Part shown: positions 39,534-62,834 of the stretch, piece by piece
Numbering within the stretch: the first letter of the stretch is position 1
Layout of the letters: each line of letters starts with the position of its first letter
Source of the DNA: a virus
Taxonomy: Duplodnaviria; Caudoviricetes
Virus record (IMG/VR): IMGVR_UViG_3300030060_002858
Location: 1-63,394 of that record
DNA length: 63,394 nucleotides
Reading direction: 5' to 3' (one strand)
Position numbers and translations under genes: made by a program
Notes under the pieces: generated by a model
Databases searched by the model: none
What the model was told of the DNA's origin: nothing
Seen by the model: the letters and a program-made list of their open reading frames with translations, nothing else

Positions 39534-39610
39534 GCCATTACATGACGTACCCTACTGGGGGTATGCTTAATCTAATAGAAAGCCTTAGACGGGCTTTGAG
39601 GAGGTGTACG

Positions 39611-41325: not shown

Positions 41326-41698
41326 TTACGATACTCAATTTCAATCAATAGAAGCCCCAGCTCCAGTTCCTGTTCAAAGGGCGACTCAAGTAACAATTGA
41401 AGGCGGTATTTCTTTTGGGCAGTATAACGCAAATAATCCCGGATTAGATGCTATGTATAACATGGTAGGTAACCTGTTAAATACAGGGGCTACTCTATAT
41501 GAAAATATGACAAACCTTGGGTTTAAAAAAGCTGCTTTTGAGGCAGAGGAAAGAAGTAGAGAATTAAAAATGCAATTAGAAGAGCAGTATATGCGAAGTC
41601 AACTTGGTTATGAGCTTTTACAAGATGGCTATGCAGATCTTTTTCAACTAGGTTCTGGTGGCTATACCGGATCTATCATGATGGGAGGGATACAATGA
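41309..41698 (+). CDS. hypothetical protein (putative internal virion protein)
   Basis: GGAGG upstream; position in the cluster. Confidence 0.5.
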   Translation: MEIIPDYDTQFQSIEAPAPVPVQRATQVTIEGGISFGQYNANNPGLDAMYNMVGNLLNTGATLYENMTNLGFKKAAFEAEERSRELKMQLEEQYMRSQLGYELLQDGYADLFQLGSGGYTGSIMMGGIQ

Positions 41699-44600
41699 CA
41701 TATTCATTTAGAACTCCAGAACAAGAACAACAATTGCAGATTGACCTTGCTAACGCTCAGGCAAGGGCTTCAGTCAACAGAAAAAATAAACAGTTGGAAG
41801 ATCGTAGAGGCTTTACTGCTAACATGGTAGAGCTTGAAAATAAAAAAACATTAAGAAAGAAGAAATTTGAAGAGGCTTTAGGAAAACCGCAAGGAAAAAG
41901 ATATAAGGATATAGAAGAGCTTTATACCTTTTTAGAATCAGAGTACACCTCCGAAGGCCCTGAAGATACTGTAGACATTGTGTCTCTAGATAATCTAAGA
42001 CCTCAATTAAATTCTACTATAAACGATTTAATTCCAACTACAGCTCCTTCTATTTTTAGTCCAACAGGTTTTAGAAGATATGAAAATGTTTCTTTTCCCG
42101 ATGCAATGTCTTTTGCAGGAGAAAACGCTAGAGCTTTAATTAGTAATCAAGCAATAGCCGAATTAGAGTTTGAAGAATTTATTTGGGAACAGGGTGTTAG
42201 TGAAAGAATTAAAAAGTTTAGATCTTGGGAAAAAACAAGTAGAGAAATTACAAGCAGTACTAAAAAAGGAAATCCCTTTGATATGAGTTTAGTTTTTGCT
42301 GATATGGTTCTTTCGTCTATTGTAGATGATCCTAGGGAGTTTACCGAAGAAGAGCTTCGAGCAGAAATTGAAACTAATCCAGTAACATATTCAGAACTAA
42401 ATTTGCTATTTAATAAAAAGATTATGGGATCTGATTTGCTTGATAGGAGTACAACCTTTAGAACAGCTAAAGATTCCACTTCAGTTTTAGCGGCTGTTGT
42501 TCTTAAAGAGTTTGCAGAAAAACAAAAAGATCAAAGACTAGAAGAAATATCATTTGGTCAACCATCAAGATCGGAAGATGTATTTGGCGGAAGAGATTAT
42601 GACCCTAAAACAGGAATGTTTTATGGAATGAATTCTTGGGTATGGTCTGGAGAAGATAACTTCTTTAAAACTTCTATTGCAGACTTTGAAAGAAGACAAG
42701 ATACCTTTAGGCGCAATATGAGTCAAGTAGCTATAGATGGAATGATTGAAGAAGAAATGTTTTTAGAAACATTAGAAACAAATTACAAAAGAGCAAAAGA
42801 ATTTATTGCAGGCACCGCAAGAAGAGTGGCAACAGTTTTTGAAGACTCCAATAAAAAACAAAAAGCAAGAGAATTAAGCAGGGTCATGCAAGGCAATTTA
42901 TTTGAAATAGCTACAGATGCAGCAACAATTAAACCCGGAGAGACTGGACCAGAAGTTCAACTTAAATTAGGAAGTATTGAAGCAACCTTTGATTTTCTAA
43001 TCGAGCAAGAAAAATCAGGAGTTCAGACCAAGGAAGAACATCCTAAAGTTTATGAGCTTTTTGAAAAAGAAGGAATACTAGCTGCCAGCGAGGAAAATCT
43101 TACCCTAATAGAAAGATTAGAACGAAGTAAAAAATTCTTTGTAGATAATGTGGTATTTAAATTTAATCGTATGATGGAAACAATGACTACTCCTGAGGGT
43201 AGATACAAAGTCACTATGATTAATCAGTTTAAAGAGTTTGTAGATCCTAGCATAAATACTTTCCAAGGTGTTATGAAAAAGGTATATACTGCAATATACG
43301 ATAGCGATCCAAACCTTAACTATTATGAAAAGATAAAAATTATGAAATTGTATTCTACAGGTCGGTCTGCTTTTAAAAAAATGTCTTCGGTTGATGAAAA
43401 CCGATCAGCAATGGAAAAACGAATATTAGAAATTACTTCACCGCCTACAGGAACTCCTCCAGCTTCTAGTGTAACACCGCTATCTGTATTTGAAAGAGCA
43501 ACTAAAGTTGAACTAGGAGATCCAGCAAGGGCAGCCGAATTTAGACTAGGAATTATTACCGACTATAAGAATAGGATGATTAAGAACTTTGTAAATAGAT
43601 CCGGAGTAACAGAAAATCAAGCGGTTGCTGCAATTAACAACGCGGTTAAAATAGACACAACTGGAGGAGTACCAACAGCTTATATAGACTACGATGCAGT
43701 ATCTCCTTTAGAGCTTCCTTCTATTGTTGAGGTTATTTTAAATGAAATGGAAACATATAATGTTGTTGGTATTCCGCCAATTTTAGCTGGTCTTGGACAA
43801 CAAGTAAGAGAAGGGCTTGCTATATTTGGTACAGAAATTGATGTTAATACTGAAGAAGGAAAAGCAGCAGCACTCAAGGGCTTTAGAACAGTTACTGCTT
43901 TACATATTCTTTTTGGAGAAAGCGGACAACTAAGAGAAGATGTTGTAAAACAAATTCTAGGAGTTAGCGATCAAAAATACAAAGGAATTAGAAACGTAAT
44001 GGCAATCATTAAATCTATTCACGGAGATACAGCCTTTGGAGATCTGTCAAACTTCTATAATCTTCAAGATGAAAACCAACAGTTAGTTACTTCTGAAAGA
44101 TTTCAAATTGAATTCCAAAGTATTGCTAGGCAAATGCTAGCAGGCTTAGCATACGCTGGTTCTGATTTTAATTTGGTAGATGGTCAAGTATCTTCAGCTA
44201 TTCAAGACCTAGCAAATGGATCTGCTTTTCTAGGACTTGGAACTGGTTTAGATGAAGAGTCTGCTTTAACAGATAGCATAAATAAAACGGTCGGCAATAC
44301 TGGTAGAACTATAAGACAAAACATTAGAAGAAAAATGCAAATGGTTTTCGGTTTGCCTGAAATGGCAACTACAGAAGAATCTGAAGAAGTTTTTAGACCC
44401 ATTGCAACTAGGCTAGGAACAATATTAGGTTTAGATGTAGCTGCTATAGAAGAAGCAAACTATGAATATATAAACGATAGCGAGTATCCTATGGAAGATT
44501 TAACATATATTTTATTTAGAGAGCTTACTTCTAACGGGCATGTGCAACAAAAGCTAGCTAACTACATGAGTGCTCGAATGTCTGTTAGGACTGCAATTCC

Positions 44601-45465
44601 TCTTAGTATTGAAGAGACTCTTGCTATGGCAGAAACTTTTGCTACTCAGTACGGAGAAATTACGCCAAGCACAGTTATGCAAACAGGAGATTCCTCTGCA
44701 AGATTAGTCTTTGCTTCAAATTCTATGGACTCAGACTTCCTTAGAAAATTAAATAATGTAGAAATTCCCTCTACAAGTTACTCGCAAAATAAAACTTCTG
44801 TTGCTATAACCGAAAAACTTAAACGATCTAAACCTAAGTATAGCTCCGCAAGTACGCTTCCTCATTTAGAAGAAACCTTCTTAATCCAAACAGACTCACA
44901 CGAAAACGGTTTTAAAATTAGAATGGCTCAGGATTGGGGAATGGATCAAGAAAGATACAATGATATTATGCAAGAAGCTATTGAGAGAGCAAAAGAAAAT
45001 AAACACGCATCTTTGCCTGATTTTCACTTTGATGTAATATACCAAGCATTAAGTTTAGCTGAAGGTCAAGAAACAGCAGTAGATATGGAGGTAAGACAGA
45101 AAAGAGGTTATTCTTATGGGGGATTGAACTTAGATATTATGGGAAGGAAATCTCTTGAAGAAAAATATACAGTAAGGGTAGCACCTGATATTGGACAGCT
45201 TGCTGGAATGGGATACGGTTCTAACTTTGCTTCTCAAGATATTAGTGTTGAAGAAACAAGAACAAGAGAGGTAGTATCTTTTCCAAAACTAATGGAAGCA
45301 TATAAAATATTTTCCCCAGATCTTTCTACCATGAGTCCTATGGGTCAAGCATCTCAATCTCACTCTGTAGGTTTCGACCTACAAGCAGGAACTTCTAGCG
45401 GAAAAAAAGCAGGTTTTAGAATTTCCTTACCTAACATCACCTTTAAAGGAGACATCATTAAATGA
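41695..45465 (+). CDS. large putative internal virion protein (1256 aa)
   Basis: GGAGG RBS; large helical protein directly before the giant gene. Confidence 0.6.
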   Translation: MTYSFRTPEQEQQLQIDLANAQARASVNRKNKQLEDRRGFTANMVELENKKTLRKKKFEEALGKPQGKRYKDIEELYTFLESEYTSEGPEDTVDIVSLDNLRPQLNSTINDLIPTTAPSIFSPTGFRRYENVSFPDAMSFAGENARALISNQAIAELEFEEFIWEQGVSERIKKFRSWEKTSREITSSTKKGNPFDMSLVFADMVLSSIVDDPREFTEEELRAEIETNPVTYSELNLLFNKKIMGSDLLDRSTTFRTAKDSTSVLAAVVLKEFAEKQKDQRLEEISFGQPSRSEDVFGGRDYDPKTGMFYGMNSWVWSGEDNFFKTSIADFERRQDTFRRNMSQVAIDGMIEEEMFLETLETNYKRAKEFIAGTARRVATVFEDSNKKQKARELSRVMQGNLFEIATDAATIKPGETGPEVQLKLGSIEATFDFLIEQEKSGVQTKEEHPKVYELFEKEGILAASEENLTLIERLERSKKFFVDNVVFKFNRMMETMTTPEGRYKVTMINQFKEFVDPSINTFQGVMKKVYTAIYDSDPNLNYYEKIKIMKLYSTGRSAFKKMSSVDENRSAMEKRILEITSPPTGTPPASSVTPLSVFERATKVELGDPARAAEFRLGIITDYKNRMIKNFVNRSGVTENQAVAAINNAVKIDTTGGVPTAYIDYDAVSPLELPSIVEVILNEMETYNVVGIPPILAGLGQQVREGLAIFGTEIDVNTEEGKAAALKGFRTVTALHILFGESGQLREDVVKQILGVSDQKYKGIRNVMAIIKSIHGDTAFGDLSNFYNLQDENQQLVTSERFQIEFQSIARQMLAGLAYAGSDFNLVDGQVSSAIQDLANGSAFLGLGTGLDEESALTDSINKTVGNTGRTIRQNIRRKMQMVFGLPEMATTEESEEVFRPIATRLGTILGLDVAAIEEANYEYINDSEYPMEDLTYILFRELTSNGHVQQKLANYMSARMSVRTAIPLSIEETLAMAETFATQYGEITPSTVMQTGDSSARLVFASNSMDSDFLRKLNNVEIPSTSYSQNKTSVAITEKLKRSKPKYSSASTLPHLEETFLIQTDSHENGFKIRMAQDWGMDQERYNDIMQEAIERAKENKHASLPDFHFDVIYQALSLAEGQETAVDMEVRQKRGYSYGGLNLDIMGRKSLEEKYTVRVAPDIGQLAGMGYGSNFASQDISVEETRTREVVSFPKLMEAYKIFSPDLSTMSPMGQASQSHSVGFDLQAGTSSGKKAGFRISLPNITFKGDIIK

Positions 45466-48400
45466 CAACTCAGGGTATTAATAAGTGGGCAACAGAACCA
45501 CTTCCTTTTTATATGGATAATCAAGAGGAGATGAGAGAATCAGTAGGGCAGTATAACGATTTTGTTCAAGGTTTAAACCCTTTAACAGACGGCGATAATG
45601 CTCTAAATGTTCCTGATCAATTAGTTGTTGACTTAAATACCCAAGAACTAGTTAGAGGTAATTACGGTATTACAGAAGCTATGGCTCTTATGTCAGCTAG
45701 AGGATACTTTGGTGGTATGTTTGAAGACAATCAATATCAACAAAAGTATTCTGCTAATATGCAGCTAGGCATGTACAGGGGTGACAAGTATAAAGAAGGG
45801 GATCTTTTAAAGTTTGGAGCAGACGAAGAAAAACTACTAAGATACTACGCTAAAAAAAGTCCTTGGAACCTTTCAAGACTTTCGGATCCTTTTATAGACG
45901 AGACATTAGATGGCGTAGAAGATATGTGGGACGCTCCTATTTTAAATAACCTTAATGATTCTCCTAATGATTTAATGGAAGCAGAAGCTCCTCCCGATTG
46001 GTCTCCCCAAGAAGCATTAAAGGTTTTGCAATTAAGAGATCCAGAAATGTATGCCGTATATGCTAATAGTTTAGGTGCTTCAAACTTAGAGCAAATTGTA
46101 GGTGAGGCTAAAAACCCATATGATTTTTTCTATACATTAACTGATACGATTCAAACAGCAGCTTTAAATACTACCATTGCAAAGTGGTACGAAGATGCTT
46201 CTAATACAGAGATTGCTTTAGAGTACGCTAGAAACTTTATTATAGAAGGAATTGTTAATGATCCAGACCTCGCAGCAAGCTTAGGAATAACAGCAGGACT
46301 TACTACTATCGGTAGTATTGCCGGTTTAAAGGCTGGTGTTATTGCAACTCTAGCCTATAAAATACCTAAAACTTTATACCAAGGTGTTAAGTATGTTAAG
46401 TTTATAAACATGATTCGCAAAGCAGCTACCACCACCATTAGGTACATGCCTGAAAATATCGGACCTACCTTGATTCAAAAAATCCCAGCCATGAAAAATT
46501 TCAGTAGAGGAGGATTTGTACAAAAGCATTTAATTGCTAATAGAATCGGTGACGCAGGAGAAGGACTTGTAACTGGTGGTTTAGCTGAAGCAGGAAACCA
46601 GTGGAGACAGTCTACTGCTGGAGTAATTGATGAGTTTTCTTATGGCGGCATTTTTAAAGAGGCACTATTTGAAGCAGCCCTATCTCCGGCAATTAACCCT
46701 GCTATTGGGGGTATTTATAGTTTAGGCGGAGGTGCAGTAAACCTTTCCTATATGGTTTCAGATAGTGTTGCTGCAAAGGTTATTGGAGAAAAAGGACACA
46801 AAGCATTTAGTAGATTTATTGATACTACCAAGAAATACCTTAATGCAGATGACGCAATAAAAAGATTAGAAAATGCACAACTATCTTTAGAGTTATCTTC
46901 TCAAGTAAATGATCTTACTTTAGAAGGAACAGAAGTAGAAATTCAAGACGATGAGGCTAAACCAGATAGACCAGATGGAATCCTTAGCATTATACTTGGT
47001 GCTATTTGGGATCAAACTGGACTAAGTAAAGGAGACTTCCTTACTACGGTAAAAGAAATACTAGCAGATTTCCAAGCAGAAGCAGCCGATCCTAGCCACC
47101 CAAGAAATAAACTAGGAGTAGATCAAGAAATTTTACTTTCAGAGATTGCACAAGAAGTTGTTAATAGAAATAGAGATGTAATTTTAGAAGCCAATGACGG
47201 AGATACTTCGTCCTTTGAAAAGATTTTGGGATGGACTCAACATCACTTAAGACTGGCTAGCGATGCTAAAAAAGAAGGAAAGACTTATAAAGAGTATACA
47301 GAAAAAATTATTGCTGATAATGAAGAGTGGAAACTTCTTGCGCCTCAAGTATTAGAAGCAGTCAAAGAAAAGATGGGCGATAAGTTTGACTCTAGTACTA
47401 CAGAAGAAAAACTAGACGTAGCCTTAGAATACATGCAAGAAACAATTCTTAAACAACAACAAGCTATTCGAGATTTAGATACATCTACTAAAGATAAAGA
47501 AGAAACAGCTGATGGTTTAGAAGAAGAACTAGAGGCAGCAGAACCTAAACCTGATCCTAAACCAGAAGACGCTCCTACTGGAGGAGAGCCAAAGGGAGAG
47601 GATGATAAACCAAAAAGAAAACCACCTCCGGGTGACGGTCCTATCGAAAGAAGAGCAGAATTAATTGAAAGATTAAAAAGAATGAAAGAAAGAGCTGAGA
47701 AGGCAAAGGCAGAAATTCAAGAAAAACTAGATAAGGGATTCAAGGGAGTAAATAGAAAAACAAAAGAAAATATTGTAGAGCTTGGTAGAAAGATTGATGA
47801 GGAGCTAGCTTTTGTTGAAGGAGAACTAGAGTCTTTCTTAGAAACTCATGGATTAGAAGACGGTGAAGTTAAAGACTCAATTCAACTTATGAAAACTTTA
47901 GAGACTGAGTTAAATGTTCTAAAAGAAACTCTTTCTAAGGATATTACTGATACAAAGGATGGTATACTATTTGGTTTTGTTCGGTTAAATAAACTAAGGG
48001 CTGCTAGAGAAAAAGCGGGTCTTCTTTTATTCAGAGATCTTAATCTAGAAAATTCTAAAAGAACAGAAGAAGGTAAGCCTGAGCTATCAAAATTACCTTG
48101 GGATAAAACACAAGAAGATACTAGAGAAGCTTGGAAAGAGCTAGCTGAACTAACAAAGGGAGATGAAAGTAAAGCAGCACAGAGAATTAGGCAGTTTGTA
48201 AATGACTTAGAAAGCGGAAAAGAAGAAGGTATTACAATGGGCGGTGTTAAAAATACTTTTACAAACTATATGAATATGCTCGGTACAGTTATGAAAAAAC
48301 ATGAGGAAAGATATAATAAGAGAGAAGATTACAAGAAACATGTGAGTCTATTTAAACAGTACAAAGCAGCTAGAAAGAACTATCAAAGGCTAATGTCTTC

Positions 48401-51400
48401 TATCTATAGATCAGAAACATTAAAAGATATTCAACAGTTTAATGCTATTCAATTACAACAAACAGGGCTAAGAGAAAAGAAAGAGCAAGAGTCTGTATTA
48501 AATGCTAGAAGGGCTTTATTCAATGAGTTCATTGCAGAAAAAGAAGCTAGTGGCGAAGATATTACGATGGAAGAATTTTTAAACTTTTTACATCCTTATT
48601 CAGAACAAGCTCAAACAGAAGCAGCGGCTATTGAACGAGATGCTAGCAAAGGAAAAGAAACTCTTACCATTGAAGAAGCGAAAAGAATTGAAGGCAAGGA
48701 ATATCAATCTGTAAAAGATCAACTTAAGTATTTGTCTATTGGTAAACTTTCCGGAATTAATAAGGGTGGTAGGTTTAAATATGTTCGGGGTAATTGGGAA
48801 CACCAGCATAGTGATTCTGATATTCTAGGAACATCTTATGATCCTGAGTTTGTTCTTAATGAATCAAACTACGGTAAAGAATTAGATACTGATGTAGTAT
48901 TTACCAGAGATTTAAGATCCGATCTAGAAGCTTGGATTGAACTAGAGCAAAAGATTTTAGCTATTGCAAGTCATACAGATCCATCTAAAGGTATTGCTGC
49001 TTGGAGAATTCACGCTGCATTGCCTCCTTACTTTAGAGATTTCTTGGGATTAGGTCCTTATGTGGTGTTTGGTAGAGGAAATATCCTTGGTGCTGAAAAC
49101 TCTGCTTTGATGCCTACTGAAGCTTTAGACCATAACTCGTTAGACCTTACCGATGAAAAAAGTATATCAGAACTTCAAAGATATCAACATCTATTAAGAT
49201 ACGATCCTCAAAAAATCTTGGCTATTATTAGAGCATGGAAAGACCGTGGACTAGCTAAAATTGATGGATGGGAAGCTAGAGAAACATCTTTTATTTTAGA
49301 CGAGCTTTCAAAAGAAATGCAAAACGAAGGAGACCCTAACTCTGCTGCTAACTTATTCTATACTCAAAAACTTTTAGAAAGAGTTCACAATCAATCTAGA
49401 GCTATTAATATGGCGAACTGGACAAAACGCCAAGGAGAAGGTGGCGGTTATATTATAGCCGTTGATCCAGATACTGGATTCCCTACGGAGTTTACCAACA
49501 GTGCTGGAACTTATAAAAGAGAAGCTCTATACCACGCAAAAGAAAGACTACAGTTTCTATTTGGCACCAGAAGATTTACAGAGCTACAACAAGTAGCTAA
49601 ATCTCTAGGGTTACTAACAGAAATTAGTCGAACAAAAGAAGACGGAAGAACAGAAATTATTATACGAGATAGAGAAGGCAATGTAAGAGCAGATGTAGTT
49701 GAGTATCTTACAGAACAAATTGGAGAGCAAACTGATATTAACATTACTGATTTAGGAAATGGTAACGAAGACTATGCATCAGCTCAAATCGCAGGCTACG
49801 GTATAGTAGACTTTATGAGTCAAAAACCAATGCCAGCTGTCCAACAAAGAAGTGTTGTTCTAGATAAAGATGGTAATACTGTTCCTACTGAAAGCAATGA
49901 AGATAGTGAAACCGCTTCTTTACCTACTGATATCCGCCTTCCTCAAGAAGGAGAAACAAACGCAGCTATGCCCATTCCTGTAATGAAACTAGCTGAGTTA
50001 ATTCAAAACTTTAAGGCTAGAGAAAGAATGCGGTATATCTTAAGTAAGGATACTTTTACGGACGCAGAAAGAGCTGCCTATAAAGAATGGGTAGAAGCTA
50101 AATGGTCTGATGTTTTAGCTGGAATGGATCCTGATCCTACCGGAGAAAACGCACAGATCTTTGTAGTTCCCCAAATAGTAGGCGGATCTCTACATGAAGC
50201 TGTAATGTCCCGAGCCGAGGCAAAAGAATTCTTACTAGAACTTATGTTAGATATCCCAAGAAACGCAGAAGCATTTATTCACGACCAAGTTACAAGAAAA
50301 CGCGGAAGTGCTTTAATGTTTAACGAGGGTCAGGGAGAGAAGGAAATTAATGTTTTAGACAAAGAAGGAAACATTGTAACAAAGAAAATTAAAGACCTCA
50401 ATGTTGAGGGTGGTCTTATGTTTGACCTCAGCCACGGGGATCACATGCTTGTTCCTCTAGGACGAATTGGTGAAATCATGGCAATTGAAGCAATGGGTCC
50501 ACAGTTTGCTGGGCTTACCGATATTGTAATAGACAAGGTTGTGCAATACTCAGATGCAGCAAGAAAAGAAGGAACACTAGATGAACTGCTAGCTTTTGAA
50601 AACTGGAGTGACAGAACAGCTAGCGGTGTATTTGAAATGAAACTACTTTCTTTAGCAGGAGATGCAGACTCTACTATTGAAATTGAAGTAGATGGTAAAA
50701 CTAAAAAAGTAAATGCACCTAAACTTTTAGATATGATTAGAGATGGAGTTATAGAACCGGGAACAAAAGCAGAGTCAGATTTTTATCTATCAACAGCAAT
50801 TATTGCGGCACCTTTATTTGCTATGGGTAAGAAAGGCGGACTACAAACTCTATTTGATGTTATTAATAAAAACGATATTCGTAGTGTAAAAGATCTTCAA
50901 GAAAAAGAAGCTGGTCTATCTGAAGGGGATAAAAAGAAGTTAAAACTATTGCGAGAAATATTTAAAGTTCCTGTTATGAGAAGAATTTATGGCGGATCTA
51001 AACCAAACTTTGATGTAGAATTTTCAGAGGGAGGCAAGGGATACGAGGCTTTAAAGAAAGCAGGCATGACTTCTGAAGAAGATATTGCTGCTCTTAAAAA
51101 AGTTTTATTCTCTGGAAACGGAGGAGCTACGCACATCTCTAAGACTATTCTTATTGACTATGCATTGGGAGTTAACGATAGAACTAAATATCTTGTACAA
51201 AAGTATTTGGGTATTGATCAAACCAGAAGCGTACCATTGTTAGACACATGGAAAGAATTAGTTAAACTAGATAATAAAGCCTTGTCTGCTGAGTTAGAAA
51301 GATCTCAAACCCACATCAGACTATTAGAAGATTCTTTAAGACAGAAATATGAGATTGATAATCCTGCTGACTTAACATTTGAACAATGGAAAAAAACAAA

Positions 51401-54400
51401 AGGATATAACAAGAGGTTTGAAAAAGCCAAGGCTTACCTAGAAGAACAAGAAAAAGCAAGTAATCCTATTCACCCCGGTACTGTAGCCTATGAAACATTT
51501 AAAAAAATACTTCAAACCACAGATCAACTAAGTGCTGAAAGTATTGGATACTTTAGAGCACTAAATATTCTTAACTCGCAAGAGTATAGGTTAAACGTAG
51601 ATCGACTACAGTTTGTAGCTCAAAGAGTATTGGGGTTAACAGACTTTAGTGTGCAAGACTTTATGGGATTTGAGCAGCACGCCTTGTATCAGCTTATGTT
51701 GCCCACAGCAACTTCAGGAAGAACATATCCGTTAAACACAACCGGACTAAATCCTTTAGGCATCTCTTTAGAAAGAGTAGCAAGAATGCAACCCTTTGTA
51801 AAGGATGGAGTTAGGTACAATGACTTTATTGATTATGTAGAAAGAAACCCCGGACTAGATGAAGCTGAGTTTAAAAAGGATCTAGAAGATTACCTAACCA
51901 ATCACGACGGAGCAGATGCTTTCGGTGCTTTTGATCTTGAAGATCCATCTCTTAGGAAGTTTGAAACTAGAGAAGAGGCTGAAGCTGCTCTTGAAGATCT
52001 AATGATTAAACAAGAGATGATGCTATGGTCTAGTTATGATAAGCCACCTAAGGAAGTATTTAAAGACTATACCGCAGAAGACAGTGATGAAGGATTCTTT
52101 AATAATCTTCTTACACAGTGGCATCAGCACTCAGAGCAAAGGCACTTGACGCTAAAAGAAGAAATAGCTTTCGAACAAGCCGAAGCAGATAGAATGATAG
52201 CAGACGGCAAGAGACCCACAGATAGTCCAGTTCTACAATTAAAAAATAAAGCTGGTGGGTTGGTCAATAAGAAACTAGTTGAAGCATCTGAAGGAGAGTT
52301 TAGATATCTTCCTTATCATGTTTCTGAAAGAAATCCTTCTTCGGTAATGATTCACACAGCAGGTCAAAGAGGACCACTATCTATGCGTCCTCGATTTAAA
52401 GAAAGACAGTACTATGATATGGGACTATTAAGTTTACAGAAGAGGCACGTTCAAGATAGGATTACTAAAGCAATGGGGCCTATTGAAACTATTAGAACAA
52501 ACGCAGATTCTCTAACAGAAGAAGATGCTATGATTAGCGGAGTTAACATAGGACACGCTCCAGCTTGGGATTCTAACAAACTGCCTCAGGTACTTCCTAC
52601 GCTTCCTAGAGCCATTGCCGCAGATCTTAGAACAGACATGGGTCAGAGAGCAGCTAAGATTTATTATGAAGTTTCTATCTGGGCTGAAGAAAGAGGACTC
52701 GCAGATAAACTAAAAGAAGATCCAGAAAACTTTGTACGTTTTTATATTATTAGAGAAATTGAAGAAGAGCGCAAGAGACAACTTAGAAGGACCAGAGAGA
52801 GTAATATTACAAATGAGAATGATATTATTGCAGCAAGAAATAAATGGATTGGAGGACTGCACGATATTAGTAGATACTCTAGAGATTTGAAAGATCCAGA
52901 AGGTAGGCGAGGTCTTCAATTGTTTACAGAAAGACAATCCTTTGCCGCTGTAAATCCAGCTGAAGAAGGCGAACTATACATGGATCTTCTAGTTAATGTA
53001 GCCGACGAAAACAATCCAGATGGTTTCTTGTTTACTAGAAGTCTTTTAGATGACGCATTTAAATTAGGGCCAGTACCTACGGGTGAAAGAATTATTATCA
53101 CGCCAGAAAATGTATCAGATGAAAAGACAATGGAAGAGATATTTGAATTTAAGGATCTTAACTTAGAATCTTGGGCAGTACAAAATGCTGACTTTAATAA
53201 ATTCTTAGCGGCTCAGTTATTTACAGAAGCAATCGGCAAAGCCATGCTAGAGTTTGAAGGCGGTAAGTATAAGAGTGTAGCGTTTACTCCAGATCAATGG
53301 GAATTTGCAATAGATCCAGAAGACCGCAAACCTTTAATTGCACTAGCAAAACAAATGGTCATGGAAATGCCTTCGTTTGAACTTACAGTAGGAATTGAAG
53401 AGTCGCTATACAACGACGATAGTAAGATTTCAACTTATAGGATGACCATTAACAGAGAAGGCGTTGCTCCTGAAAAAGGAAAGGAACGAGATAAGAAGGC
53501 CGTACCAACTCAACAAAGAAATGTGTTTGGGGCAGCAACGGGCTTTGGTATGCAGGTGATGACTAGAACTAAGTTAAAATCTAAAAAGGCAAAGCTTGCT
53601 CTTACACCAGAGCACAGAATGCAGTTATTCTCAATACTAGAAAACGCTCAAACCATGCAGGGAATTACTTTAAGCAATTGGTTAAATAAAGGATTAGGCG
53701 TGAAGTTAACAGAGGACGGTCAGATTGTTAGAGCGGTTCCTATCCAAGATAGAGTAGCAGATGCAATGGGCTATACTGCTCGTCCTATTAGAGACGCAGC
53801 TATTAACGAAGCTGAGGCCCTAAGAAGAGTTAGTTCGGTAGACGGTGAAAGTAGTGTTAGAATGATTGACGACCCTCTTACCAGCGTAAGGGGAGCTAGA
53901 GTTAATGTAGTAGATTTAGATTACTACGCTAGGGATAACTCTTCTTGGGGAGACGGGTCTATTAATACTGCTTGGCTTGAGTCTTACGTTAGTCCTATTA
54001 CTAAACTAATTCATATGCTAGATAGATCGGGAATTCAAGCCGGTAGTGAATTGGCAGATCTTAAGTTAGAACTACAGTCTTTAATTGCTTTAACAAGAGA
54101 ACAGGACAATATGTCTAGTGTTGTTGTAAGATTAATTGCATTAAAACTAGAAGATCCTTCTTTAGATTTTAGAAAAAATAAAATCAAAATGTTTTTTACA
54201 GACGCAGAAAGAAACGGAGATGACTTTAATACTGCTATTAACAAAGCTGACTCAATTATTTTAAAAATTAAAAAACACACATCAGACTATGGAGTTACTA
54301 GAAAACTTCCCGGATATTACGAAGCTAGGCAGTTTATCACAACTCAAGAATATAGTCCTGCTAACTTTGAAGAAACACTTCTTGCTTTTAAAAAGTATCT

Positions 54401-57400
54401 AGGAGATCCTACATTTGTTGGAACAGATGATCAACTAGAAGATGCACTTAGATTTGCTTTTAGAGATTTAGACGAAGAAAGATTAGATATTGACGAAGCT
54501 ATGAGTTTCTTTGGAGGAGAAAGAATTGCTTCAGAATCTTTAGAATTATTTACTAAAGGAACTGAAGAAGAGCTTTTAACATCACTAGGGCCAGCAATTG
54601 AAGACAATCCTGAGTTAGGATTAATGGTCAGAGGTCCAATAAGAAACTTAAATAAATTAATTAGAGAACAAAAAGTTCTTTCAGAAGAAGCTGGGGTAGC
54701 TATTAAGGCTATGCTATTTAGAGCAAATCAGTTAAATCCAGATATACTTCTAAATCTAAAGTTTGAATTTATTACAGAGCGATTAGAGGGAGTAGCCCAA
54801 GCAGAAAGAAAGGGAGATAATTTTACAATTAGACTAGGCTCTAACTTTAAAACTATTACAAAAGATAATCCTTTAACTGCAATTCAAATAGTTGCTCACG
54901 AACTAGCTCACGTTGCTAGGCTAAAATTTATTGCAGATAACTCTAGAGAATATAATGGGTTATTAGGACTTTGGCAAAGCGACGAAGGCAGGGACATGTT
55001 ACGAAAGGCTGTTCAAGCTTTTCATGGTGGAGTATTTACTTCTGAAGCTAAAAAAGAATATGAAAGATATTTAAATAATCCTGAAGAATTTATCGCAGGA
55101 TTTATGTCATACTTTCTTTTAGGAGACACAAATGTTGAGATTAGAGATTTAACTAAAAAACAAAAGGGAATGTTTAATGAGTTAACTTCTATTGTAAAAA
55201 GAATGATGACTTATGTTTCTAATATTTTAAACAATCTTCAAAATGCGTTTTACACTGGAAATGAAAAGTTTGATAAAGAGGTAAGAGCACTTGCTCTTCG
55301 AGTATGGGGACATGATGCAGCGACAGGAAAGCCTGCCCTAAGACAACTTGATTCTGGTCAAGTTGCAGATGCTACATATGGATGGAGTCAAAGATTTAAA
55401 GATACTAAAGAATTTGTAGTAGACCCTGATAAAGATTTACAAATAATTAAAGGACACAAAGAATTAGCTAGACTAAACTCAAAGGCTGAACTTACAGAAG
55501 AAGAAATTCTTACTAAACATAAAATCAATGACTTCTTATACGCAGAAGGTACTTATGCTCAAGAAAACTTTGGTTTGAATGGCCTATCACGCTCTGATTA
55601 TTTAGCAACTCTTCAACAGTTAAAAGAAAAATATCCATCTAAAAAACGAAGTGATTTAGAAAATGATTCTAGAAATAACGATGAATCTATTATTGATATA
55701 CGAGAGATACTTGCTCAAGGTACTAATAAAGAAAAGGCCACTGCTTTAGCTTACCTTATGGATGCTGTATCAAAAACATACGGAGATCCTATAGCTAAAG
55801 GTCTAGGTGCCATTGGAAACAGTATAGCAGATAGCATTCCTAATGTTAAGCAAGCAGCGGCAAAACAAGCATTATTTAACTTACTACTAGGTGATACCGG
55901 ATCGGGAGAAACATTTGGTGCTGAGTTCTTACTGCCTATTCTTATTACGCAAATGCTAGATGATAATATTGTTACTGCTACGGGTAATTATCTAAACACA
56001 GCAGGAACTCCTTCTGTTAGAACAAATATTCAAAAGCTAGAGACGTTCTCAACAAGTATTAGAACCAGTAAAAATCAAATTGCAGCTGCTCTTAGAGGTA
56101 TTACAGATGTAGCAAAGAGAACAGTATTTGAGTCGTTTGTTAGTGACACCGATAAAAAAGTTATGGCTAAGTTAGACAAACAGCTTATTACAAGTGTAAC
56201 TAAATTAAACGAAGGAGAGGCAGAGTTTACTTTCGATCTTTCAGAAGATGCATTAGGGGTAGCACTAAATGATAAACAAAAAGCAGTTATTCTAAAAGCT
56301 CTTGGAGAAATTAAAAATACGTTTACTCAAATGGCAGAAGATAATATTAGAGACGGAATATCTATTGGTGAATTTGGCGAAGGTTTTACGCAAGTAGTTC
56401 CATATCGTTTAGGCAATTCATTGCGTGCCGAAGATGTAAGAGCACCAGAGTTTAAAGATACAATGACTAGCTTAATTCAAAAAAGATTATCTCAAGGAAT
56501 AGAAAGCGGTCTTCTAGATGGAACAGTAATGGCTGCGGTAGGACTTATCCCGCACTTTGGAAATAACACAGCAGCAAGAGCAGATCTAGAAAGACTTAAT
56601 GCTCAGTATCCTCAATTGGTAGATGCTATTTTAGCCGAAGCAGTTAAACAAGAGGGAGATACTGAAAGACAAACTAAAGAAAAAGTTAACCTATTAAAAG
56701 CAAAACTAAATGATACCGCTAATGTAGATTCTTTTGTAGAGTTACAAGTAGGTACTGGGCGTTTCTTAAACAAACTTGCACAGGGAACAATCACTTTAGA
56801 TAGCATATTTACTAGGGCTAGTCAACGTATTGCTTTTGTAACAGAGTATAAGACTGCTGTAGAAAATGCTAACAAAAGATCAGCAGATGCTCGAAATAGA
56901 TTAGATGCTTTAACAAAAGAAAGTGGAGACATTCGCTCTAATACATTCTTTAGTCCTACCACAAAAGATACTCCTGTAGCAGCCTTTGATAGAGCAGCTG
57001 ATAACCCAATTGAATTTATTTTTAGAAACTTTCACAAGAGAGCTTCTAGGGGAGCGTACTATCCTAACGATAACTGGGCAATCCCTAGTGTAAGAGAAGC
57101 ACTAGAAGCTAATGAAGATATCCAAAAATATTTTGTAACAGACATGGCAGCATTAGCTGAAAATGCAAAACAAGGTCTATTTAATGATATTGCTGAAAAG
57201 AAAATGTTTAGAGAGTTCGGAGTACACGGAAACATTGAGCATGTATTAACTCTTATTAGTAGCGTAGCCTTTAGCGATTATTCAGTAATGGCTCCAGACG
57301 GAACGTCAATAGAAGGTCAACGAGTAAAACAAGTTGTAGAAGTATTAAGAAACAAACATAATGCTTTAAGAAATATTATTGAAAAACCAGAAGGAACTAA

Positions 57401-59141
57401 TACGGGTTCAGTAGAAAGTTCTATTGTAGATTATGCTAATGCTGCAACAAGAATTGCATATGGAGGCAACCTATTCCTTGCTACTACTATTGTAGAAAAC
57501 GGATACAGTGCAGTAGACGAACTAATCGGAAGAGGAAATATTGTAGGATTTTTAAGAAGTGCTTTAGCTCCCTTTAGTCAACTTACAAATAGAACAGAAA
57601 GAGCAAGAGTATTAAAAGATTTTGCTTACCTAATTGAGTCAATGACACAAGGATTTTTACCTGAATACGAAAGACCGTTAGGTACAGAAGGAGATAGTAC
57701 GGTATTAAAAGCACTCAAGGGCTTGGGTTCTGCAAACATGAGGCTTGCTAAGTGGCAACTTAAAAACATTACCGCAGCCCGTGCAATAAATATTAGATCT
57801 TTTATTCAGTCATATTTAAAACCAAACAAAGATGGAACGTCTAAGTTAAGTGAATTAGCTAGATTGTTAGAAGAATCTAATCTTTCTAAATTACCAATTG
57901 AAGAACAAGAACCAGCTTTAAAAGGAATACTAAGAAAGGCAAAGATTGGAACAAACAACTTACCAATAATTTCTTACCTTATTAAAGCAGGATTATTAGA
58001 ACCTACTAGATTAAGTATGCTTTTAGAAATGATGCCTGCCGAAGGACGTTACAGTCCATTTGAAATGACTCAGGAATTGTTTACCACTAAATCTCCTAGA
58101 ACTAATGCAAAAGAGTTTCAACAAAAACTTGACATTATTACAGCCCTTAAAAATATTGAAAGAAGATATGTAGAAGAAGCTATTCTAGCTCCCAATGCAT
58201 TTGATACTGCTACTGGTCCTAGAGGAACATTTGAACAAATCTTTGAAATCTATCGTAGATATCCCGTTCTCTTTGCAAGCCAACAAGTAATTAGAAAGTC
58301 AAGCAGGGTTGGAGTAGTTAGAGCAGGTTTTAGTTTAACTTCCTTGATTCTTTTAGATATGCTTTATATGGCTGCTCTATCAATGGCAGCAGGTAAACCA
58401 CTTGAAGATGTTGTAAAGGATTATGAAGAAGCTCCTCTAGCTAGTGCAGGCAAGCTTCTTTTAAGAACTCCAATCTTTGGTAGATGGTTAGCTATGGTTG
58501 GTCCAGTTTTAGCTAAAGGTCTAGAAGCTATTGAAAAAGGTCGTATGCCATCTGGATATGAACTTACTCAAGCTTTCCAGTCTGGTTCTGGTTTTATTCC
58601 TGTAGCAGCTTTAGGAGCAGCAGCAGGTTCTCTTCTAACAACATTCCAAACTATAGGGGGCGTATTTGGACTTAATGAGATGCCTAGAGGACAAGAACTT
58701 GTTAACTCTTTACGATTAATTCCAGCAGGAGACGCAGCAATTAGACTGGCTATCTTCTCCTTAGCGGGAGATAGTATTGAAAGGAAGAAAAGACGAGGAC
58801 CAAGCGGAGCAGGATCTTATGGAGGACAGCAGCCAGTCACAGGGCTTCACTATGGAATGCACAGAAACGATGCTGCTTTTACTTGGGAAAGCATGTACAA
58901 GGACATGATGACTCCTATTCTAAATGGCGAGTTACCTCAGGTTGTAAAAGAGTATTATAAAGACATAGAACAAATGGATGCAATGCAAGAGCTGGGAGCC
59001 ACGCCCGCCTCTCCACAACCCGCCGCGCCGCCCGCAAAACCCGCGCCGTCGCAGCCAGAGATCACTACACCTAAAGTAGATCCTGTAGACTCTATACTAA
59101 ATCAAGGACCTACCAAGGCACCTGATACTTTACTCGAATAG
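45462..59141 (+). CDS. giant (4559 aa) polyvalent virion protein with T7/N4-like RNAP motifs and a zincin peptidase motif
   Basis: AAGGAG RBS; uninterrupted 13.7-kb ORF; DRTASG, SDFY, REIFKVPVMRRIYG, SGRTYPLNTTGLNPLG and HELAH..EEFIA motifs. Confidence 0.7.
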   Translation: MTTQGINKWATEPLPFYMDNQEEMRESVGQYNDFVQGLNPLTDGDNALNVPDQLVVDLNTQELVRGNYGITEAMALMSARGYFGGMFEDNQYQQKYSANMQLGMYRGDKYKEGDLLKFGADEEKLLRYYAKKSPWNLSRLSDPFIDETLDGVEDMWDAPILNNLNDSPNDLMEAEAPPDWSPQEALKVLQLRDPEMYAVYANSLGASNLEQIVGEAKNPYDFFYTLTDTIQTAALNTTIAKWYEDASNTEIALEYARNFIIEGIVNDPDLAASLGITAGLTTIGSIAGLKAGVIATLAYKIPKTLYQGVKYVKFINMIRKAATTTIRYMPENIGPTLIQKIPAMKNFSRGGFVQKHLIANRIGDAGEGLVTGGLAEAGNQWRQSTAGVIDEFSYGGIFKEALFEAALSPAINPAIGGIYSLGGGAVNLSYMVSDSVAAKVIGEKGHKAFSRFIDTTKKYLNADDAIKRLENAQLSLELSSQVNDLTLEGTEVEIQDDEAKPDRPDGILSIILGAIWDQTGLSKGDFLTTVKEILADFQAEAADPSHPRNKLGVDQEILLSEIAQEVVNRNRDVILEANDGDTSSFEKILGWTQHHLRLASDAKKEGKTYKEYTEKIIADNEEWKLLAPQVLEAVKEKMGDKFDSSTTEEKLDVALEYMQETILKQQQAIRDLDTSTKDKEETADGLEEELEAAEPKPDPKPEDAPTGGEPKGEDDKPKRKPPPGDGPIERRAELIERLKRMKERAEKAKAEIQEKLDKGFKGVNRKTKENIVELGRKIDEELAFVEGELESFLETHGLEDGEVKDSIQLMKTLETELNVLKETLSKDITDTKDGILFGFVRLNKLRAAREKAGLLLFRDLNLENSKRTEEGKPELSKLPWDKTQEDTREAWKELAELTKGDESKAAQRIRQFVNDLESGKEEGITMGGVKNTFTNYMNMLGTVMKKHEERYNKREDYKKHVSLFKQYKAARKNYQRLMSSIYRSETLKDIQQFNAIQLQQTGLREKKEQESVLNARRALFNEFIAEKEASGEDITMEEFLNFLHPYSEQAQTEAAAIERDASKGKETLTIEEAKRIEGKEYQSVKDQLKYLSIGKLSGINKGGRFKYVRGNWEHQHSDSDILGTSYDPEFVLNESNYGKELDTDVVFTRDLRSDLEAWIELEQKILAIASHTDPSKGIAAWRIHAALPPYFRDFLGLGPYVVFGRGNILGAENSALMPTEALDHNSLDLTDEKSISELQRYQHLLRYDPQKILAIIRAWKDRGLAKIDGWEARETSFILDELSKEMQNEGDPNSAANLFYTQKLLERVHNQSRAINMANWTKRQGEGGGYIIAVDPDTGFPTEFTNSAGTYKREALYHAKERLQFLFGTRRFTELQQVAKSLGLLTEISRTKEDGRTEIIIRDREGNVRADVVEYLTEQIGEQTDINITDLGNGNEDYASAQIAGYGIVDFMSQKPMPAVQQRSVVLDKDGNTVPTESNEDSETASLPTDIRLPQEGETNAAMPIPVMKLAELIQNFKARERMRYILSKDTFTDAERAAYKEWVEAKWSDVLAGMDPDPTGENAQIFVVPQIVGGSLHEAVMSRAEAKEFLLELMLDIPRNAEAFIHDQVTRKRGSALMFNEGQGEKEINVLDKEGNIVTKKIKDLNVEGGLMFDLSHGDHMLVPLGRIGEIMAIEAMGPQFAGLTDIVIDKVVQYSDAARKEGTLDELLAFENWSDRTASGVFEMKLLSLAGDADSTIEIEVDGKTKKVNAPKLLDMIRDGVIEPGTKAESDFYLSTAIIAAPLFAMGKKGGLQTLFDVINKNDIRSVKDLQEKEAGLSEGDKKKLKLLREIFKVPVMRRIYGGSKPNFDVEFSEGGKGYEALKKAGMTSEEDIAALKKVLFSGNGGATHISKTILIDYALGVNDRTKYLVQKYLGIDQTRSVPLLDTWKELVKLDNKALSAELERSQTHIRLLEDSLRQKYEIDNPADLTFEQWKKTKGYNKRFEKAKAYLEEQEKASNPIHPGTVAYETFKKILQTTDQLSAESIGYFRALNILNSQEYRLNVDRLQFVAQRVLGLTDFSVQDFMGFEQHALYQLMLPTATSGRTYPLNTTGLNPLGISLERVARMQPFVKDGVRYNDFIDYVERNPGLDEAEFKKDLEDYLTNHDGADAFGAFDLEDPSLRKFETREEAEAALEDLMIKQEMMLWSSYDKPPKEVFKDYTAEDSDEGFFNNLLTQWHQHSEQRHLTLKEEIAFEQAEADRMIADGKRPTDSPVLQLKNKAGGLVNKKLVEASEGEFRYLPYHVSERNPSSVMIHTAGQRGPLSMRPRFKERQYYDMGLLSLQKRHVQDRITKAMGPIETIRTNADSLTEEDAMISGVNIGHAPAWDSNKLPQVLPTLPRAIAADLRTDMGQRAAKIYYEVSIWAEERGLADKLKEDPENFVRFYIIREIEEERKRQLRRTRESNITNENDIIAARNKWIGGLHDISRYSRDLKDPEGRRGLQLFTERQSFAAVNPAEEGELYMDLLVNVADENNPDGFLFTRSLLDDAFKLGPVPTGERIIITPENVSDEKTMEEIFEFKDLNLESWAVQNADFNKFLAAQLFTEAIGKAMLEFEGGKYKSVAFTPDQWEFAIDPEDRKPLIALAKQMVMEMPSFELTVGIEESLYNDDSKISTYRMTINREGVAPEKGKERDKKAVPTQQRNVFGAATGFGMQVMTRTKLKSKKAKLALTPEHRMQLFSILENAQTMQGITLSNWLNKGLGVKLTEDGQIVRAVPIQDRVADAMGYTARPIRDAAINEAEALRRVSSVDGESSVRMIDDPLTSVRGARVNVVDLDYYARDNSSWGDGSINTAWLESYVSPITKLIHMLDRSGIQAGSELADLKLELQSLIALTREQDNMSSVVVRLIALKLEDPSLDFRKNKIKMFFTDAERNGDDFNTAINKADSIILKIKKHTSDYGVTRKLPGYYEARQFITTQEYSPANFEETLLAFKKYLGDPTFVGTDDQLEDALRFAFRDLDEERLDIDEAMSFFGGERIASESLELFTKGTEEELLTSLGPAIEDNPELGLMVRGPIRNLNKLIREQKVLSEEAGVAIKAMLFRANQLNPDILLNLKFEFITERLEGVAQAERKGDNFTIRLGSNFKTITKDNPLTAIQIVAHELAHVARLKFIADNSREYNGLLGLWQSDEGRDMLRKAVQAFHGGVFTSEAKKEYERYLNNPEEFIAGFMSYFLLGDTNVEIRDLTKKQKGMFNELTSIVKRMMTYVSNILNNLQNAFYTGNEKFDKEVRALALRVWGHDAATGKPALRQLDSGQVADATYGWSQRFKDTKEFVVDPDKDLQIIKGHKELARLNSKAELTEEEILTKHKINDFLYAEGTYAQENFGLNGLSRSDYLATLQQLKEKYPSKKRSDLENDSRNNDESIIDIREILAQGTNKEKATALAYLMDAVSKTYGDPIAKGLGAIGNSIADSIPNVKQAAAKQALFNLLLGDTGSGETFGAEFLLPILITQMLDDNIVTATGNYLNTAGTPSVRTNIQKLETFSTSIRTSKNQIAAALRGITDVAKRTVFESFVSDTDKKVMAKLDKQLITSVTKLNEGEAEFTFDLSEDALGVALNDKQKAVILKALGEIKNTFTQMAEDNIRDGISIGEFGEGFTQVVPYRLGNSLRAEDVRAPEFKDTMTSLIQKRLSQGIESGLLDGTVMAAVGLIPHFGNNTAARADLERLNAQYPQLVDAILAEAVKQEGDTERQTKEKVNLLKAKLNDTANVDSFVELQVGTGRFLNKLAQGTITLDSIFTRASQRIAFVTEYKTAVENANKRSADARNRLDALTKESGDIRSNTFFSPTTKDTPVAAFDRAADNPIEFIFRNFHKRASRGAYYPNDNWAIPSVREALEANEDIQKYFVTDMAALAENAKQGLFNDIAEKKMFREFGVHGNIEHVLTLISSVAFSDYSVMAPDGTSIEGQRVKQVVEVLRNKHNALRNIIEKPEGTNTGSVESSIVDYANAATRIAYGGNLFLATTIVENGYSAVDELIGRGNIVGFLRSALAPFSQLTNRTERARVLKDFAYLIESMTQGFLPEYERPLGTEGDSTVLKALKGLGSANMRLAKWQLKNITAARAINIRSFIQSYLKPNKDGTSKLSELARLLEESNLSKLPIEEQEPALKGILRKAKIGTNNLPIISYLIKAGLLEPTRLSMLLEMMPAEGRYSPFEMTQELFTTKSPRTNAKEFQQKLDIITALKNIERRYVEEAILAPNAFDTATGPRGTFEQIFEIYRRYPVLFASQQVIRKSSRVGVVRAGFSLTSLILLDMLYMAALSMAAGKPLEDVVKDYEEAPLASAGKLLLRTPIFGRWLAMVGPVLAKGLEAIEKGRMPSGYELTQAFQSGSGFIPVAALGAAAGSLLTTFQTIGGVFGLNEMPRGQELVNSLRLIPAGDAAIRLAIFSLAGDSIERKKRRGPSGAGSYGGQQPVTGLHYGMHRNDAAFTWESMYKDMMTPILNGELPQVVKEYYKDIEQMDAMQELGATPASPQPAAPPAKPAPSQPEITTPKVDPVDSILNQGPTKAPDTLLE

Positions 59142-59164: not shown

Positions 59165-59425
59165 ATGGAAGCTATTGAAGGACACCTTATTGACATTTTA
59201 ATGACAGTAGTGAGCACAGCACTTTTTGGACTTATTGGTTTTGTCTGGAAGATTAGTCACAAAATTTCAAACCTAGAAAAAACCGTTGACACCTTACATA
59301 AAATGCAATCTAGAGATGTAACTGATTTAAGAAAAGATATTGATATGATATGTGCTAATATGGATAAAAACAGAGAGTGGACTACAAATAGAATGATGTC
59401 AATTGCCAAGGAGATGCCTAGATGA
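59165..59425 (+). CDS. small membrane protein (holin-like)
   Basis: One N-terminal TM segment followed by a coiled coil. Confidence 0.5.
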   Translation: MEAIEGHLIDILMTVVSTALFGLIGFVWKISHKISNLEKTVDTLHKMQSRDVTDLRKDIDMICANMDKNREWTTNRMMSIAKEMPR

Positions 59426-59970: not shown

Positions 59971-60090
59971 ATCGACTAGGGGGTCACGAATTTATCTGAG
60001 GTGATGTATAGTATTGCGCTGTTGCAGTACCCCCCGTAACCCTGTTCGAAAGGATTTGGAATTATTGTTCTTAGCTGGATACTGTTCGTC

Positions 60091-60210
60091 ATGATGGTTG
60101 TTGTCATGGTACTGGCAACCATCTCACCGTTGTTCTTTTCTTCTGAAGAGAACGATGAGGATTATCTGGAACCGGAAGAAGTAGACCCGGAGACTGGAAG
60201 GTACCACTAA
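60091..60210 (+). CDS. possible small membrane-anchored acidic peptide
   Basis: MMVVVMVLATISPLFFSSEENDEDYLEPEEVDPETGRYH; start uncertain. Confidence 0.3.
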   Translation: MMVVVMVLATISPLFFSSEENDEDYLEPEEVDPETGRYH

Positions 60211-60315
60211 CACACACCGCCTCACGCTCCCTTTACTGGGAGCATGAGGTATTCCGCAGGACTAACCCCGTCAAGGTGACGGACTAATCCTGTTACTCTA
60301 ATGGAGGGTATCCAT

Positions 60316-62811: not shown

Positions 62812-62834
62812 CCTCAAGTCCTACACACCACGAT

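Follow-up and report, generated by a model that had tools for sequence, protein, structure and literature searches.

A 4559-residue late protein of a T7-like podovirus, probably related to the ejected virion RNA polymerase of phage N4

The DNA analysed here (the window) is the whole 63,394 bp of one IMG/VR virus record, IMGVR_UViG_3300030060_002858, which has a completeness estimate of 94%. All of the large genes are on the + strand, and in gene content the virus is a T7-like podovirus. Among four late genes without assignment the final one is also the largest, and it is the subject of this report: an open reading frame (ORF) that translates to 4559 amino acids (aa), as an earlier note made from the DNA letters had stated, and that is called the giant below. 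The note proposed that positions 50250-51000, which encode aa 1597-1847 of the giant, hold the core of a virion RNA polymerase (vRNAP) of the type found in phage N4. From comparison with homologues, the giant is probably an ejected protein of the N4-vRNAP type, carried by a T7-like lineage. Its features are listed by window position; model residues are those of model 1, a structure prediction of aa 1481-2680.

45462-59141 (+): the giant ORF, 4559 aa
46269-46355 (+): hydrophobic Gly/Ala-rich N-terminal segment, aa 270-298 (Kyte-Doolittle)
50268-50297 (+): predicted beta-hairpin with D1608 (FIHD) at the turn (DSSP strands at model residues 123-126 and 129-132)
50598-50660 (+): motif A-like element, a strand ending in D1717 and then a helix starting at S1721-G1722
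50775-50786 (+): S-D1773-F-Y element
50940-51005 (+): motif B/O-helix-like element, R1831-x3-K1835-V-P-x-M-x3-Y1843, at the end of predicted helix H341-362
51009-53156 (+): conserved, mostly helical block of about 720 aa (aa 1850-2565), where T7 has about 145 aa
53163-53261 (+): long helix with Q2574-x-x-D/E2577
54645-55235 (+): zincin-like domain, H3146-E-x-x-H3150 and E3209-F-x-A3212, invariant in the giants
58308-58649 (+): C-terminal hydrophobic segments, aa 4283-4311 and 4377-4396 (Kyte-Doolittle)

The giant has a family of very large homologues. A word-indexed protein search found one homologue only, and tblastn of aa 1400-2600 against a phage collection found no match. An exhaustive HMMER search with aa 1401-2600 gave 54 proteins at E<=0.001, including 41 at 1e-10 and 23 at 1e-30. 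These relatives are metagenomic; about 15 are full-length (4650-5635 aa, 25-40% identity) and the remainder are fragments. In an alignment of 18 full-length sequences the best-conserved blocks are aa 1500-2900, 3100-3300 and 4000-4300. Conservation in the core was counted over aa 1481-2680, where 1097 columns have at least 15 sequences and 44 columns are at least 90% conserved. The latter include D1608 (23/23), D1717 (23/23), D1773 (23/24), R1831 (26/26), K1835 (27/27) and Y1843 (26/27), and also S1721 (21/23), R1840 (25/27), Q2574 (26/26) and D2577 (24/26, with E in the other two). G1722 (17/23), P1837 (23/26), M1839 (22/27) and G1844 (10/27) are weaker, and the residue after G1844 is G or A in all 27 sequences. 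The full-length alignment has 120 columns that are at least 93% conserved, which hold D1608, D1717, D1773, R1831, K1835, Y1843 and Q2574 and not D/E2577.

The three polymerase-like elements lie where the earlier note placed them. SDRTASGVFEM is at 1716-1726 (D1717), SDFY at 1772-1775 (D1773) and REIFKVPVMRRIYG at 1831-1844, and the order from motif A through the D-h-Y element (DxY) to motif B is kept and conserved across the giant family. D1717, D1773, R1831, K1835 and Y1843 are invariant or nearly so in the homologues. In T7-type enzymes the motif A Asp and the O-helix Arg, Lys and Tyr bind metal, phosphates and sugar. In reference numbering, we take the T7 residues to be D537, R627, K631, Y639, H784, D787 and D812, and the residues of POLRMT to be D922 and D1151.

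The motif A-like element has the strand ending in Asp and the x3-[S/N]-G at the helix start that are expected of motif A (strand 235-237 and helix 241-253 in model 1). In the second element the Asp is kept in 23 of 24 sequences and the Tyr in 21 of 24, and hhalign pairs SD1773FY with the DLY of T7-like RNA polymerases (RNAPs) and of N4 vRNAPs. The third element has the R-x3-K-x7-Y of motif B at the end of a long helix, with the counts given above, and the following glycine is variable. Its R/K/M/Y/G spacing, which the earlier note likened to that of T7, is the same in the phage's own T7-type RNAP of 818 aa, RGVTKRSTMCEPYG. The K-x-P likened to N4 is present in N4 gp50 and is common to the giant family (23/26) and the vRNAP family. 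Translated from NC_008720, N4 gp50 has TRVGR, ADGVTNG, DLY, RGIAKNPLTITIYG and IFDG at the published positions, and the motif B-like element of the giant is 41% identical over 22 aa to the N4 family. The A-to-DxY and DxY-to-B spacings are 56 and 58 aa in the giant, 51 and 56 aa in N4, and 32 and 36 aa in the 818-aa RNAP.

A composite pattern was written for these elements: D-x3-[SN]-G, 20-70 aa, D-h-Y, 30-70 aa, R-x3-K-x7-YG. It has a single match in the giant, at D1717, and one of 20,000 shuffles of the giant gave a match. The pattern also matches the 818-aa RNAP, the N4 mini-vRNAP and 120/120 T7-like RNAP relatives. Two of 20 homologues fit it strictly and 13 of 20 in a relaxed form; the few strict matches are mainly due to the variable glycine.

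Between motif A and DxY there is a variable hairpin, IEIEVDGKTKKV, at aa 1739-1750 (50676-50711, +). It contains IEVDGK with D1744 and is an insertion that resembles vRNAP motif A (EVDGxTNG). At least 8 of 23 homologues lack this hairpin, so D1744 was rejected as motif A and D1717 was retained. The hairpin may be what is left of a motif A that was duplicated or displaced.

The zincin-like domain is homologous to that of vRNAPs by profile comparison, and this is the only statistically solid homology between the giant and vRNAPs. A slice of aa 3001-3301 aligned to a profile of seven Schitoviridae sequences gives an hhalign score of 51.4 (E 2.1e-6, probability 89%, 197 columns). The overlapping slice aa 2851-3151 scores 40.8 (E 7.1e-5), and none of the remaining 27 of 29 slices exceeds 20.4. 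Against N4 alone the HExxH slice is not significant (E 0.036-0.041) and is not the top slice. H3146, E3147, H3150, K3155, E3209 and F3210 are invariant in the giants, and 6/7 Schitoviridae vRNAPs have NEFMAW-type helices 68-83 residues after HExxH. According to Iyer et al. 2017 (PMC5512222), aa 2130-2448 of the N4 vRNAP are a zincin-like HExxH domain, and N4-like RNAPs are reported there as always fused to such a domain. The giant has the same order, with the zincin-like domain fused downstream of the polymerase motifs. HExxH is 478-620 aa past motif B in the seven Schitoviridae vRNAPs and 1315 aa past it in the giant, and this additional distance roughly equals the length of the inserted block of about 720 aa.

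The polymerase core (aa 1560-1900) was compared with two family profiles by hhalign. The T7-like profile is a 59-sequence alignment of relatives of the 818-aa RNAP, and the vRNAP core profile has 10 Schitoviridae sequences (N4 and nine phages, 23-58% identity). When 25 overlapping 341-aa slices of the giant were run against the vRNAP profile, the motif B slices scored 27.4 and 27.9 and the other 23 scored 12.6-19.6; the matching stretch is giant aa 1827-1848 to N4 motif B. In the path against the T7-like family, DFY pairs with DLY and motif B with motif B. The nearest language-model neighbours of aa 1560-1900 are PF00940 and N4-vRNAP clusters (0.80-0.84), which is a lead only. A full-length hhalign of the giant with vRNAPs gave the zincin domain first (E 0.0045), then weak colinear matches at motif B, Q-x-x-D and the C-terminus and three non-colinear ones; this comparison was not counted.

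Model 1 was made from a 49-row alignment and has a predicted local distance difference test score (pLDDT) of 75.3 and a predicted template modelling score (pTM) of 0.70. Its N-terminal part has a long helical hairpin at aa 1507-1552, the D1608 beta-hairpin, a short strand to D1717 and a helix. In the middle are the variable hairpin 1739-1750, helices with D1773 and the long helix ending at Y1843. The C-terminal part consists of about 720 mostly helical residues, the long helix with Q2574/D2577 and a low-confidence hairpin at 2642-2664. The only PDB structural matches that stand out are POLRMT and T7 RNAP, and they are driven by motif A, D-F-Y and motif B. VIA alignments begin at motif A (model 236 to T7 536, and model 213 to T7 534). 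In the structural check that the earlier note called for, the motifs lie on a predicted strand-Asp-helix unit and at a long-helix end as in T7-type RNAPs, and no Foldseek match was significant. The modelled match of the giant core to single-subunit RNAPs is weak but specific.

Motif C is the main difficulty. The candidates named in the earlier note are at the residues given: FIHD at 1605-1608, NHD at 2147-2149, GLHD at 2465-2468 and LDDAF at 2529-2533. FIHD1608 is invariant, but it is upstream of motif A; NHD2149 (18/27), GLHD2468 (6/30) and LDDAF2529-33 (8/28) are poorly conserved and were rejected. A YNDD hairpin at aa 2642-2664, which has no conserved acidic residue, and VVDLD2815-19, which is poorly conserved, were also rejected. 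The note had advised looking for a second Asp near D1717: D1608 is an invariant candidate on the upstream side, and no invariant Asp in a predicted hairpin was found downstream of motif B. D1608 is 109 aa before D1717, and the T/DxxGR of the 818-aa RNAP is 116 aa before its motif A. In the model, the D1608 hairpin could be either the positional counterpart of T/DxxGR or a displaced motif C. The former is suggested by its position 109 aa before motif A and by the thumb-like helical hairpin that precedes it. The latter is suggested by the h-I-H-D at the hairpin turn, which resembles the IHDS and IHDA of the phage's two conventional RNAPs.

Past motif B, the inserted block has no family or fold match, and its repeated structural rows are only generic helical bundles. 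It is well conserved, and invariant positions are numerous (G, P, R, W, N and E), e.g. N2035, R2087, R2105, W2220, G2321 and P2375. The Q2574-x-x-D/E2577 helix follows, and the VIA alignment places model residue 1101 on T7 residue 791, where the T7 RNAP helix ends. At the equivalent place the 818-aa RNAP has H724-S-L-D727.

The phage encodes two conventional RNAPs, and the remaining landmarks of the genome are as follows.

Replication genes: primase/helicase, DNA polymerase and ribonucleotide reductase
6125-8581 (+): canonical T7-type RNAP, 818 aa (PF00940 E 6.9e-81; phrog_414 E 3.9e-157)
From 23480: portal, then scaffold, capsid protein at 27495 and tail tube B at 29538
At 37839: large terminase
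39497-45465 (+): three unassigned late genes of 273, 336 and 1256 aa, upstream of the giant, with no PHROG match
60973-62811 (+): second, compact and divergent single-subunit RNAP, 612 aa, in a GC-rich right-end module (phrog_2051 E 1.6e-8)

The 818-aa RNAP has IDGKCNG (D520), DLY (D552), RGVTKRSTMCEPYG, HSLD (H724/D727) and IHDS (D752). The 612-aa RNAP has a DxxGR-like MDEAGR, motif A RDFVAQG, K...YGGG and motif C SIHDAF. By hhalign it matches the T7-like family with DxxGR and motifs A and C aligned, and the vRNAP family at E 2.9e-4. It has a syntenic counterpart of 602 aa (24% identical) in a relative, G001. This relative is 62,786 bp long and has the same layout, with an RNAP 67% identical at the same place, a giant gene and the 602-aa RNAP-like gene.

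The right end (about 60000-63394) has 50-63% G+C and the remaining genome about 38%, and long ORFs are open there on both strands (60946-62817 minus, 60973-62811 plus). Since the tail of G001 is likewise GC-richer (0.48-0.52 vs about 0.39), the right end probably represents a genuine module that differs in origin or constraint; its synteny in G001 makes a chimeric assembly unlikely.

The portal, capsid protein and RNAP have their best matches, among those listed, in T7-like phages of about 37-46 kb at 24-33% protein identity, and no Schitoviridae are among the matches listed for these three proteins. A megablast of 25 kb against the phage collection gave no nucleotide match. The RNAP has 328 relatives at E<=1e-10, some of them from Tara samples. 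The contigs that carry such relatives are 54-71 kb, which suggests that genomes of this lineage are about 1.5 times the usual T7-like size. Within the T7-like replication module there is a ribonucleotide reductase gene (17203-19149, +; phrog_367 E 1e-171). Five tRNA genes are in the early region (2478-4335, +), Lys-TTT, Ile-TAT, Met-CAT, Arg-TCT and Leu-TAA, and all of them read A/T-ending codons.

The gene context resembles an ejection operon. A structural paper (PMC13434306) describes in N4 and its relatives an operon with three products: a small protein of the outer membrane, a tunnel protein of intermediate size in the periplasm, and the vRNAP, which replaces T7 gp16. The 273-, 336- and 1256-aa proteins are candidate partners of the giant by analogy with the N4 gp52/gp51/gp50 and T7 gp14/15/16 arrangements. 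In keeping with the N4 plan are the four consecutive products of 273, 336, 1256 and 4559 aa, the giant's hydrophobic segments and the lack of other ejection candidates. The Gly/Ala-rich segment at aa 270-298 is a candidate for a membrane-active part; in another paper (PMC13492108) the N-terminal region of the N4 vRNAP is proposed to act at the membrane. The gp16 position claimed by the earlier note holds by analogy only, because the gene is past the large terminase and not between tail tube and fibre. Tail tube B is directly followed by a likely tail spike or fibre, a 1289-aa protein (32322-36191, +) with right-handed beta-helix and phage fibre repeat matches (Pfam E 6.3e-9 and 4.6e-7), and this moves the ejection genes to a place beyond the terminase. 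The 273-aa ORF (39497-40318, +) has a sub-threshold match to a holin family (PF16079, E 8.9e-4), and after the giant there is a candidate Rz-like spanin of 86 aa (59165-59425, +; phrog_739 E 7.5e-4).

Several known systems bear on the nature of the giant. N4 gp50, for which mini-vRNAP structures are available (2PO4/3C3L, cited in PMC4496689), is likewise a giant single polypeptide and the product of the largest gene of its late-gene run. It shares the central polymerase-type motifs with near-identical A-DxY-B spacing and K-x-P, and the homologous HExxH...EFxA domain downstream. However, the giants are 4559-5635 aa and Schitoviridae vRNAPs 3068-3632 aa, and the giant has about 720 extra residues after motif B and no recognisable TxxGR or motif C. 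The TxxGR/NPQS of vRNAP cores was not found in the giant core, the core similarity is not significant, the backbone is T7-like and hairpin promoters were not found. With T7 RNAP and POLRMT (PF00940) the giant shares, in the same order, motif A, D-h-Y, an R-x3-K-x3-M-x3-Y O-helix and a helix with [H/Q]-x-x-D. The giant differs in that it has no PF00940 match, motif C and GR are missing, the glycine of YG is variable and the module is in a 0.5-MDa protein.

Like T7 gp16 and other podovirus ejection proteins, the giant is the largest of its late-gene set, contains hydrophobic segments and would be expected to act as the third ejection protein. It has no sequence or family match to gp16 (neither PHROG nor Pfam), its gene is after the large terminase and not between gp15 and the fibre gene, and it is about 3.5 times longer. 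Polyvalent proteins, as described in PMC5512222, are also very large and multidomain, with a zincin-like metallopeptidase and predicted delivery with DNA. One atlas neighbour cluster of the giant has PF18838 LPD23 in 18% of its members, which is a lead only. Since defining features of PF00940 and of the N4 vRNAP family were looked for and not found, the giant is not filed as a member of either.

Several results weigh against reading the core as a polymerase. Neither the whole giant nor any of 10 overlapping pieces of it has a Pfam, PHROG, NCBIfam or PDB sequence match. Against the T7-like family the core gives an hhalign probability of 0.15% (E 0.4), and the 612-aa RNAP does better there (E 2.8e-4). 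Against the vRNAP family the core scores 28.2 (probability 3.6%, E 0.012), which is not significant, and the comparisons with the 818-aa RNAP alone and with N4 alone are not significant either. A control with the T7-like and vRNAP families, which are known homologues, gives the same level (score 28.7, E 0.024, probability 2.0%); therefore, the non-significance is no argument against homology, nor is it proof for it. With the T7-like profile the best slices lie elsewhere: those with motif B score 17.3 and others reach 26.6. In the core alignments hhalign pairs the polymerase motif A with the D1744 hairpin, which is not conserved, and not with D1717. The composite pattern was written only after the motifs had been seen, and the glycine following Y1843 is conserved in just 10 of 27 sequences.

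The structural and genomic evidence adds to these points. Foldseek gave no match at E<=0.001 in the PDB with both models or in BFVD with model 1. In a separate fold of aa 1501-1900 the D1608 hairpin disappears and its pLDDT falls below 50, and no conserved G-R was found after D1608. For motif C, aa 1845-3100 have no invariant Asp except D/E2577, and this residue is in a helix. No repeated promoter-like motif, 11-mer or short hairpin of the kind used as T7- or N4-type promoters was found, and the phage already encodes two single-subunit RNAPs. No repeated hairpins were seen at either genome end, which decides nothing on promoter use.

The best explanation overall, with a probability of roughly 55%, is that the giant is the largest ejection protein of a deep-branching marine T7-like podovirus and is built like the N4 vRNAP. 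The proposal that it is or derives from a virion RNAP is thus upheld in part: the motifs are conserved and the zincin-like domain is homologous to that of vRNAPs, but motif C and a significant core match are lacking. Common ancestry with vRNAP-type proteins is fairly likely. That the giant is still an active polymerase is slightly less likely than not. The protein would have membrane-active ends, a central and extremely diverged single-subunit (T7/Pol A-type) polymerase module and then the vRNAP-type zincin-like domain. The polymerase module would run from the D1608 hairpin through D1717-x3-SG, D1773-F-Y and the O-helix to the insertion of about 720 aa and the Q2574-x-x-D2577 helix. The virion location, ejection, template and catalysis that we infer for the giant may be outlined as follows. 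The capsid would hold a few copies, which would leave it before the DNA does, and the hydrophobic ends would engage the envelope. The polymerase module would then transcribe, and perhaps pull in, the first entering DNA before the two conventional RNAPs are made, and the zincin domain may process the giant protein.

An unlikely alternative is that the giant has the same ancestry but is a dead enzyme. Motif C would have been lost, the fingers and half-palm would bind DNA or nucleotide, for instance in keeping hold of the leading DNA end or in recruiting, or handing over to, the conventional RNAPs, and the protein would serve mainly as a channel or anchor in ejection, as T7 gp16 does. The lack of a conserved motif C and of GR, the loss of the YG glycine, the insertion of about 720 aa inside the fingers and the presence of two bona fide single-subunit RNAPs in the same phage are in line with this. 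However, the motif A Asp and the O-helix Arg, Lys and Tyr are invariant at 25-40% overall identity, which is hard to explain without a nucleotide-dependent activity, and a second carboxylate could come from D1608 at the hairpin turn or from the acidic residue 2577. It is improbable that there is no polymerase at all and that the giant is an ejection or polyvalent protein with a zincin domain and helical spacers. The missing database and fold matches would then be expected, but the motifs would have to be conserved for other reasons and the weak structural matches would reflect generic helical packing, although the few structural matches that stand out are single-subunit RNAPs.

The boldest form of the polymerase reading is also quite improbable. 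Here the 0.5-MDa injected protein would be a working RNAP with a C-A-B motif order, in which FIHD1608 supplies the second catalytic Asp and the fingers carry the 720-residue insertion. We know of no C-A-B order in the Pol A/T7 superfamily. Marine T7-like podoviruses of 63-71 kb would then have an N4-style cascade, with three phage polymerases, on a T7-type chassis, and the giant would be a living link between T7 gp16 and the N4 vRNAP.

Literature text searches turned up no report of a vRNAP-like protein from T7-like phages; the supplements of PMC5512222 and PMC10654107 may list relatives. A polyvalent-protein survey reported N4-like RNAP-zincin fusions (PMC5512222), and a structural paper of 2026 describes the vRNAP as unique to Schitoviridae (PMC13434306). 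A survey of N4-like metagenome viruses uses the vRNAP as its search handle, with hidden Markov models at E 1e-10, and gives T7-like phages as the nearest outgroup to N4-like viruses by terminase (PMC10654107). N4-like surveys at this threshold would miss the giant family.

A giant virion RNAP has been treated as a hallmark of Schitoviridae and has so far been described only in N4-like phages. If the preferred reading of the giant as an N4-vRNAP-type ejected protein is true, injected polymerase-type proteins would be older or more mobile than one family, and T7-like and N4-like phages would share more than terminase ancestry. The giant would also be a natural example of how far a T7-type active site can drift. 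Its family lends itself to structure determination, and the core to an uncomplicated activity test. For the phages themselves, it would mean that an abundant uncultured marine lineage starts infection independent of the host RNAP.

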